A stretch of DNA of 64,000 nucleotides from Patescibacteria group bacterium (GTDB lineage: Bacteria; Patescibacteriota; SICC01), in assembly GCA_040902515.1 (NCBI GenBank), contig JBBDXB010000006.1, positions 404,763 to 468,762 on the forward strand. Direction: 5' to 3'. The notes beneath the pieces are model-generated. The model made no database searches and was not told the DNA's origin. It saw only the letters and a list, made by a program, of their open reading frames with translations. The translations under genes were made by a program, and so were the position numbers. Below, one piece after another: positions 35,968 to 37,075 of this stretch (within the stretch, counting starts at the first letter, position 1; each line of letters opens with the position of its first letter).

Positions 35968-36408
35968 ATGACCATGCGGCGCAACCAGGCCGGATTCACC
36001 CTGATCGAGCTGCTCGTGGTCATCGCCATCATCGGTATCCTGGCGGCGCTGATCCTGGCGGCATTCGGCAGCGTCCAGAAAGGCAGCCGGGACACCAAGC
36101 GGAAGAGTGACCTGCATCAGGTCGGCATCGCGCTGGCCAACTACGCCGCGAACCATGCCGACCGGTACCCGGTCCGTACCGGGGAAGTCGACGTGAGCGA
36201 CCTCACCGAGCTGACGTCGGGGGGCTTCATTAGCGTCTTTCCGGATCCTCCCCCCGGTTCCGCCGACGCGTACACGTACGTCTCGGATGCCGTCGGCAAC
36301 GCCTACGGCGCCTGCGTGCGATTGGAGAAGGATCCTTCGATGATGCTCAAGCACACGGAGAGCGGCCTGCATACGGTGGCCGAAGGTGCCTGTACGCCGG
36401 GTAACTAA
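35968..36408 (+). CDS. Type IV (major) pilin, class III signal peptide.
   Basis: MTMRRNQAGFTLIELLVVIAIIGILAALILAAF. G at -1, F at +1, E at +5. Confidence 0.85.
   Translation: MTMRRNQAGFTLIELLVVIAIIGILAALILAAFGSVQKGSRDTKRKSDLHQVGIALANYAANHADRYPVRTGEVDVSDLTELTSGGFISVFPDPPPGSADAYTYVSDAVGNAYGACVRLEKDPSMMLKHTESGLHTVAEGACTPGN
35999..36062 (+). repeat. 64-nt exact direct repeat, copy 1. Shared with 36663-36726.
   Basis: ccctgatcgagctgctcgtggtcatcgccatcatcggtatcctggcggcgctgatcctggcggc is identical in both tandem pilin genes. It encodes the N-terminal helix. Confidence 0.9.
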
Positions 36409-36613
36409 GCATATTGACGCGTATCGGGGCGTCCGCTACGCTGAGGCCAGTTTAGGCGGGCTCCCCGCTTAGGCGAAACAAAACGGAAAAAAGAATGTCG
36501 TTATCGGAACATACCAGACGTATGAGTCACCATACCTGTCGCCATCGCGGAGGGTTTTTTGATACTGCTTTCGTTGACAGAAAAATACACCATCGAAAGG
36601 GGGTGATATACGA

Positions 36614-37075
36614 ATGACACACGCCATCAAATCCATGACGACGCGCGGCCAGCGGGGCTTTACCCTGATCGAGCTGCTCGTGGTCATCGCCATCATCGGT
36701 ATCCTGGCGGCGCTGATCCTGGCGGCGCTCAACAGCGCCCAGAAGGGTGCCCGCGACTCCGAGCGGAAGAGCGACCTCAACCAGTACAAGACGGCGCTCG
36801 CGCAGTACAAGGCGGACAACGCGACCTACCCGGTGCAAGCCGCGGCGACGGCAATGACCAACGCCAACGCACCGTACAGTTCGCTGAACCCGAACTACAT
36901 TTCTGCGTTCCTGGACGATCCGACGAACGGTGCCAGCTATTACTACATAGGCTCGGCCACGCAGTTCGGCGTTTGCGCCAACCTTGAGCGTAAGTCCGGA
37001 TCGCGCTTTGAAGTCGGCCCGACGATCAGTCAGGAGACTTCCGGTGCAGCCAGTAGCTGTGCGCTGCTTAACTGA
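36614..37075 (+). CDS. Type IV pilin (second tandem paralog).
   Basis: MTHAIKSMTTRGQRGFTLIELLVVIAIIGILAALILAAL. GGGGGTG RBS. Confidence 0.85.
   Translation: MTHAIKSMTTRGQRGFTLIELLVVIAIIGILAALILAALNSAQKGARDSERKSDLNQYKTALAQYKADNATYPVQAAATAMTNANAPYSSLNPNYISAFLDDPTNGASYYYIGSATQFGVCANLERKSGSRFEVGPTISQETSGAASSCALLN
36663..36726 (+). repeat. 64-nt exact direct repeat, copy 2.
   Basis: Identical to 35999-36062. Confidence 0.9.

Follow-up and report, generated by a model that had tools for sequence, protein, structure and literature searches.

Two adjacent genes for type IV pilins, pil1 and pil2, lie within a pilus cluster of a high-GC member of Candidatus Saccharibacteria and share a segment of 65 nucleotides (nt) that is identical at every position. 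We conclude that this identity is very probably a gene-conversion tract between two old tandem paralogues, a reading that rests on the comparison of the two genes with each other and with their relatives in other genomes. The window, by which we mean the whole stretch of DNA analysed here, is 64 kb of contig JBBDXB010000006.1 with a G+C content of 64%, and the closest relative in public data carries the label "uncultured Candidatus Saccharibacteria bacterium". Independent tracts of the same kind are found in three lineages and are absent from three others.

RESULTS

Extent and coding content of the identical block

Match extension at an offset of 664 showed that positions 35998-36062 and 36662-36726 agree at all 65 nt, the match being closed by mismatches on both sides (C at 35997 against T at 36661 on the 5' side, A at 36063 against G at 36727 on the 3' side). 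An earlier reading of this DNA, made without database searches and called here the sequence-only reading, had reported 64 identical nt at 35999-36062 and 36663-36726; the identity is real, and it reaches one base further 5'. The two copies are direct repeats. They are the only occurrences of the block in the window when up to three mismatches are allowed (none are expected from shuffled sequence), and a scan of the whole window found no other long perfect repeat.

The block codes for mature residues T2 to A23, the hydrophobic alpha1-N helix. It had been said to encode the class III signal peptide as well, which is incorrect: both the leader peptide and the G-1/F+1 cleavage site are encoded 5' of the block, by sequences that are not the same in the two genes, with GGA TTC as the Gly-1/Phe+1 codons of pil1 and GGC TTT as those of pil2. 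The statement that the genes diverge completely on either side is likewise too strong, since downstream pil1 and pil2 retain 78% nucleotide identity across 180 nt and 51% protein identity across 120 residues. The parts that encode the globular domains give no alignment at the nucleotide level. The three minor pilins of the cluster are 67-71% identical to the block region.

Synonymous identity in the block exceeds peptide constraint

Under the codon usage of the window, estimated from 32 confident genes, two codons drawn independently would be expected to agree at 10.9 of the 21 in-block positions, and all 21 agree (P = 2.9e-7). At the flanking codons for residues that the two proteins share, 10 of 21 are identical against 10.5 expected, which means that synonymous sites there are saturated (Fisher P = 1.6e-4 for the contrast between block and flank). 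When same and different states were permuted along the shared-residue codons, a run of 21 same codons had a probability of about 0.001.

An empirical background was provided by 52 pilus loci of the candidate phyla radiation (CPR), anchored on PilC, which yielded 179 within-locus pilin pairs; loci from other genomes are designated here by L numbers. The longest exact runs among these pairs are those of the window (65 nt) and of its sister locus L001 (57 nt), and the next best is 19 nt. Two sets of tandem pilins serve as natural controls. In L063 and L064 (L063:2529-3471, L064:124-1066) the pilins lie 34 nt apart and are identical at 34 of 34 N-terminal residues but at only 9 of the 34 codons, with a longest exact run of 9 nt and with 27 nucleotide differences, nearly all of them at third codon positions. 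In L057, the pilins agree at 23 of 24 residues but at only 10 codons. These pairs show the outcome of protein constraint alone, and the identity of the block therefore exceeds constraint. The argument of the sequence-only reading that such constraint would by itself leave synonymous differences is thus borne out, both by the statistics on the 21 codons and by the controls.

It is barely credible that an invariant helix was written twice in preferred codons with no exchange between the genes: although most block codons are common (ATC 0.90, CTG 0.50, GAG 0.64) and the 5' region of pil2 is slow at synonymous sites, the two copies also match at the rare GGT (0.15) and throughout a mixture of CTG/CTC, GTG/GTC and GCC/GCG, the pairs of L063, L057 and L010 share 26-71% of their shared-residue codons with longest exact runs of 9-19 nt, the pil1 of the close relative L002 differs at 11 of the 65 block positions, and codon bias as the cause is effectively refuted by the codon-usage calculation and the natural controls. 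Had the same nucleotide identity been spread over many unrelated pilin genes, codon bias on an invariant peptide would have been the simpler view, as had been pointed out. A degenerate pattern covering any DNA that encodes the block peptide matched only two loci among 185,579 species genomes, scanned with one genome per species, and both belong to close relatives.

Block and flank group differently among related loci

L001, at 89% identity to the window, carries both block copies at the same 664-nt spacing, while L002, 96% identical to the window, has a single block match, in pil2. Further loci came from protein searches and contig look-ups: L055/L056, L057 and L058, in all of which pil1 and pil2 stand in tandem, as well as L059, L061, L063/L064, L003 and L062. 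Of these, L059 (assembly GCA_040881485.1) is 100% identical to the window across 5522 nt.

In the 79 nt after the block, the sequences group by orthologue: window pil1 differs by 5 nt from L002 pil1 and by 9 nt from L001 pil1, and any pil1 is separated from any pil2 by 22-38 nt. Within the block, nothing distinguishes window pil1 from window pil2 or from L002 pil2, and it is 11 nt off its own orthologue in L002. In addition, a codon that reads GTG in L002 pil2 and in both copies of the window reads GTA in both L001 copies, a single site that gives modest support. A block that groups by genome next to a flank that groups by gene is the signature of interlocus gene conversion, which here recurs with different endpoints. 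Against the exact 65 nt of the window, the L001 tract between pil1 and pil2 is 72 nt with one mismatch. The L055 genes are identical at 26 of 28 shared-residue codons in the first 30 codons, in a longer tract that extends through LNSAQQG and has endpoints other than those of the window. No tract is present in L002, L057 or L058, whose longest same-codon runs are 5, 5 and 3, respectively. The locus thus combines synonymous identity inside the tract and saturation outside it with phylogenetic incongruence and a shared lineage-specific substitution. The proposal that gene conversion or recombination took place between the paralogues is upheld by the incongruence between the block and its 79-nt flank and by the change from GTG to GTA in both L001 copies.

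Two of the related loci have a different arrangement. In L003, a decayed pilin N-terminus with no start codon (GLTLIELL*VIATIGA, L003:6230-6285) stands right after pilC and is followed by an intact pil2 promoter and pil2; a pilin remnant in this position indicates that pil1 was lost by deletion in the L003 lineage. In L061, the first pilin after pilC (L061:1808-2242) has a helix of the L002 pil1 type (TIIELLVVISII..ALTLAA) on a globular body of the pil2 type, which looks like an evolutionary reshuffling of N-terminal segment and body.

Direction and timing of the conversion

Among the window, L002 and L001, the pil2 block has hardly changed (0-1 differences). Residues I3, S11 and T20 occur both at the N-terminus of L002 pil1 (TIIELIVVISII..ALTLAA, with the helix sequence TIIELIVVISIIGILAALTLAA) and in the position-1 pilin of L061, a more distant locus. 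From the stable pil2 block and the pil1-type helix common to L002 and L061 we infer, with moderate confidence, that conversion ran from pil2 to pil1, with pil2 as the donor and pil1 as the acceptor. The comparison suggests that an older helix of the pil1 type was overwritten by the pil2 type in both the window and L001.

In pilC and pilT, synonymous differences between the window and L001 affect 0.19 of the shared-residue codons. Calculated from this value, the absence of any difference at 21 codons would have a probability of about 0.012 if the last homogenisation in the window predated the split between the window and L001; by the same calculation, the finding of at most one difference at 24 codons in L001 would have a probability of about 0.04 under homogenisation before that split. 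These low probabilities point to separate homogenisation of the window and of L001 after they split. Between the window and L002, pil1 is a hot spot of divergence: its synonymous difference per shared-residue codon is 0.19, where pilT and pilC have 0.08, and 10% of its codons are nonsynonymous. This pattern suggests either allele import or diversifying selection on an accessory pilin.

Several points weigh against this reconstruction. The L002 pil1 block has 14 differences from other pil1 blocks and 11 from pil2 blocks, and because it is no closer to the former than to the latter, the ancestral state of pil1 is uncertain. The whole L002 pil1 is a divergent allele, which may have been imported, and it cannot place the conversion in the window after the split between the window and L002. 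Its use for dating as an unconverted ancestor is weakened for the same reason. In the first 60 codons of pil2, the window and L001 show 5 synonymous changes at 59 codons, compared with a background of about 0.19 per codon, and some selection at the nucleotide or codon level may act on the 5' part of this highly expressed gene. Finally, the approximately six related public genomes leave the number and order of the conversion events under-determined.

The repeat as a recombinational switch

The sequence-only reading went on to suggest that the repeat could mediate deletion or fusion of the two pilin genes and so phase or antigenic variation. The block would then be a working switch, at which RecA-mediated deletion or unequal exchange eliminates a gene or creates pil1/pil2 hybrids. 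Physically, the repeat could support deletion, fusion or phase variation, as there are two perfect 65-bp direct repeats 664 bp apart; the minimum homology for RecA-dependent recombination is about 25-30 bp in studies of E. coli, a length that the blocks exceed. The pil1-type N-terminus on a pil2-type body in L061, which points to domain reshuffling over evolutionary time, and the divergence hot spot in pil1 also speak for a switch. Nevertheless, no hybrid pilin was found in the 90% protein clusters of either pilin, among their homologues or in related loci, a sample that holds about three genomes of the species group. Nor did the related loci contain a fusion of a pil1 leader to a pil2 body abutting pilC, and all six relatives with two pilins retain both genes. 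The loss of pil1 in L003 left pil2, its promoter and an N-terminal remnant of pil1 in place, so it was not a deletion from block to block. A deletion of that kind could not be reversed and would take the pil2 promoter with it, leaving the hybrid to read-through from pilC. The locus has no recombinase, invertase or guanine quadruplex (G4) element, and the repeat, absent from three of six lineages, is not a maintained feature. A PilC-anchored metagenome scan for variants and fusions returned only distant relatives, the best of them at 66% identity. With neither hybrids nor a junction detected, both genes complete and the converted tract in the constant region, we consider a working switch very unlikely, and the suggested alignment of orthologous loci turned up no related locus with a fusion and, in L003, a loss of pil1 by a different deletion.

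Known pilin-variation systems give a further standard of comparison. In the pilE/pilS system of Neisseria, the donors are silent, promoterless and truncated at the 5' end, the variable C-terminal part is converted, and a G4 element upstream of pilE is needed. The window resembles this system in that pilin genes are involved, in the RecA-type non-reciprocal transfer and in a surface filament under diversifying pressure. Unlike those of Neisseria, both genes of the window are complete, with start codons and leaders, and conversion affects the constant N-terminal part and homogenises rather than diversifies it. Silent truncated donors are lacking, and no G4 lies near the pilins: a regular-expression scan gave four G4 motifs in the window, the nearest of which, at 41224, is inside a downstream gene. 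In the tfpQ/tfpI system of Moraxella, inverted repeats and a dedicated site-specific invertase (Piv) swap the C-terminal segments. The likeness here is that of two pilin variants with a common N-terminal coding segment in which recombination occurs; the repeats of the window are, however, direct, neither of its genes is disrupted, and the search of the cluster for a recombinase was negative, with no recombinase domain in any of the 20 open reading frames (ORFs) between 23988 and 51506 that were scanned against Pfam. A cassette or inversion system was rejected in view of the complete genes, the constant-region tract, the direct repeats and the lack of a G4 or recombinase at the locus.

Sequence function and assembly as sources of the identity

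The identity could also reflect a functional nucleotide element, such as an RNA structure, a protein-binding site or a sequence like those used in DNA uptake, that purifying selection holds in both genes. The near-invariance of the pil2 block in the window, L002 and L001 (0-1 differences) and the low synonymous change in pil2 codons 1-60 would fit such an element. Yet 8-23 of the 65 positions, third positions included, are different in the pil1 genes of L002, L057 and L058 and in the pil2 genes of L057, L058 and L003; the pil2 block of the window and that of L001 differ at 1 of 21 codons, which is not significant against the background (P about 0.07); and the 64 kb contain no more than two copies of the block. 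In RNA folding, the block does not stand out from shuffled sequence (z = -0.73 by itself, -0.18 and -1.63 in two contexts), and Rfam has no match in it. An RNA structure or RNA family in the block was accordingly rejected, the window's only Rfam matches, RNase P RNA and two tRNAs, lying outside the block. Taken together, these results make a functional element highly improbable.

Since the source is a metagenome-assembled genome, and since bubble-popping in de Bruijn graphs can merge near-identical repeats, homogenisation by the assembler or during polishing was also considered. A typical read or final k-mer, however, is longer than the 65-nt block, and unique flanks anchor both copies. The second assembly, GCA_040881485.1, is identical over its 5522 nt; L001, from a different species and assembled independently, has the same tract with its own substitutions; and L055 has a different tract. 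An artefact of this type is therefore an extremely remote prospect.

Gene roles and regulatory elements in the pilus cluster

The cluster runs in the order pilM, pilN, pilO, pilB, pilT, pilC, pil1, pil2, pilD, three pilin-like genes and a gene for a DUF5648 protein (Table 1). Both pilins have a short, basic leader that ends in Gly, followed by Phe+1, Glu+5 and a hydrophobic helix some 20 residues long (MTMRRNQAG/FTLIELLVV... in pil1 and ...TRGQRG/FTLIELLVV... in pil2, the slash marking the cleavage site). Both genes thus carry the N-methylation motif of type IV pilins, and a prepilin peptidase and assembly machinery adjoin them; the product of pilD would process both pilins.

Table 1. Positions in the window of the pilus genes, the identical block and the elements ahead of pil2

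Feature	Position	Strand	Evidence or remarks
pilM	from 28953		
pilN	from 30056		
pilO	from 30769		
pilB	31828-33594		
pilT	33597-34736		
pilC, T2SSF platform protein	34747-35961	+	Pfam PF00482, E = 4.6e-67; directly upstream of pil1
pil1, type IV pilin paralogue, 146 amino acids	35968-36408	+	Pfam N_methyl PF07963, E = 5e-11
Identical block, copy 1	35998-36062	+	T2-A23 of alpha1-N helix; probable converted tract
Promoter-like element TTGACG, 17-nt spacer, TACGCT	36413-36441	+	cross-species conservation; putative function
Hairpin in pil2 leader, with two flanking TTAGGC motifs	36449-36473	+	RNAalifold consensus stem
Strong Shine-Dalgarno sequence (AAGGGGGTGA) for pil2	36597-36606	+	GAAAGG[G/A]GGTG kept in all aligned loci
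pil2, type IV pilin, 153 amino acids	36614-37075	+	Pfam N_methyl PF07963 (E = 5e-10) and T2SSG
Identical block, copy 2	36662-36726	+	0-1 nt differences among pil2 orthologues of window, L002, L001
pilD, prepilin peptidase (A24)	37160-38011	+	Pfam PF06750, PF01478
Three further pilin-like genes (N_methyl proteins)	37981-40509		
DUF5648 protein	40506-42197		

The two pilin genes differ in their surroundings and distribution. pil1 starts 6 nt past the pilC stop codon with only a weak AGG ahead of it (an alternative start at 35974 would give 144 residues), and its orthologues are confined to five protein clusters. By comparison, pil2 has 77 homologues at E <= 1e-20, many of them 50-68% identical, and the lowest divergence of any gene in the locus. 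Ahead of pil2, TTGAC and the TAC..T of the -10 element are invariant in seven aligned loci, including the single-pilin locus L003, and the same element occurs in L062, which likewise has one pilin. In the leader that follows, the hairpin stem has 10 pairs, 2 of which show compensatory changes by RNAalifold, and the TTAGGC motifs are invariant in the seven loci. These elements, together with the Shine-Dalgarno sequence, probably make up the promoter of the major pilin with a stabilising or regulatory 5' leader. A scan for consensus promoters and terminators gave one weak promoter-like site at 36559-36586, which differs from the conserved element, and no terminator.

Given its conserved promoter, leader and Shine-Dalgarno sequence and its broad conservation, pil2 is probably the major pilin. 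pil1 appears to be an accessory pilin, fast-evolving and dispensable, being found in few genomes and lost in L003. To call the pair tandem major pilins, as had been done, is therefore an overstatement, since only pil2 has the conserved expression elements while pil1 follows pilC by 6 nt and is limited to a handful of genomes.

Other features were noted in and around the cluster. An ORF of 1267 amino acids directly upstream of pilM (25090-28893) encodes a large uncharacterised protein with no Pfam match at E <= 0.001. The DUF5648 protein at the other end of the cluster has 563 residues, a hydrophobic N-terminus and two stretches that match the DUF5648 domain (E = 4e-44), and could be a pilus-associated or tip protein. 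Just downstream of the cluster, at 42631-43012, lies a bacterial class A RNase P RNA (241 bits). Far upstream, inverted matches of 57-65 nt with 81-83% complementarity (3193-3258, 3661-3725 and 4823-4879) join three ORFs on opposite strands; instead of a structural repeat, they may represent a conserved protein motif that both strands encode.

DISCUSSION

In this study, we found that the 65-nt identity between pil1 and pil2 is best explained by gene conversion. The proposed event is a non-reciprocal homologous exchange in which the segment coding for the alpha1-N helix of pil2 would have overwritten that of pil1. The N-terminal helix is under extreme protein constraint, and it may for this reason be the sole part of the two genes similar enough to nucleate a putative RecA-type strand exchange. 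The heteroduplex would stop where the sequences have diverged, 5' at the leader and 3' at the globular domain. Each event would restore perfect homology and ease the next one, leading to episodic concerted evolution of the helix segment alone. A possible benefit is that, with identical helices, the two pilins would continue to fit the same PilD, PilC and filament core.

The process itself is known, ordinary and well documented, and no new mechanism is revealed here. The tufA and tufB genes of Salmonella and E. coli are reportedly an example of interlocus gene conversion, or concerted evolution, of paralogues. The pilin genes resemble that case in the non-reciprocal exchange within a genome, in paralogues that are closer within than orthologues are between genomes, in a tract with divergent flanks and in recurrence in separate lineages. 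They differ from it in that only a segment of 65-90 nt coding for alpha1-N is homogenised, the rest having diverged past nucleotide recognition, and in being episodic, as three of six related lineages lack a tract.

Type IV pili of Saccharibacteria have been described in Nanosynbacter lyticus TM7x, in which, according to PMC11623550, pilA1 and pilA2 belong to different loci (T4P-1 and T4P-2) and to different filaments. The same work describes small "lollipop" major pilins, processing by PilD and several larger minor pilins, with a highly expressed small pilin taken as the major one (PMC11623550). The window shares with TM7x, as it is portrayed there, a Saccharibacteria type IV pilus locus with small pilins, PilD and larger minor pilins, and it differs in that its paralogues stand side by side in one locus (PMC11623550). 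A text search of PMC11623550 gave nothing on recombination and, in the passages it returned, no tandem pair of major pilins.

A more adventurous idea is that the repeated homogenisation of the pil1 helix segment by pil2 is not neutral but has been selected because it preserves a recombination handle, through which this episymbiont could reshuffle or delete globular domains, for instance by natural transformation with foreign pil alleles or by exchange from block to block. Two observations, the helix of pil1 type that L061 carries on a body of pil2 type and the doubling of synonymous divergence in pil1 between near-identical strains, are compatible with this idea without demonstrating it, and we think it very unlikely to be correct. 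If true, it would amount to a simple two-gene system for pilin diversification in Saccharibacteria.

Interlocus gene conversion at this locus offers an internally controlled case of partial concerted evolution, in which a short constrained segment would be the only landing pad for recombination between diverged paralogues. One practical consequence is that the N-terminal segments of tandem pilins carry no orthology signal and should be left out of pilin trees of Saccharibacteria and the CPR. The assignment of probable roles to pil2 and pil1, as major and accessory pilin, should in turn be useful for work on host attachment in these episymbionts.

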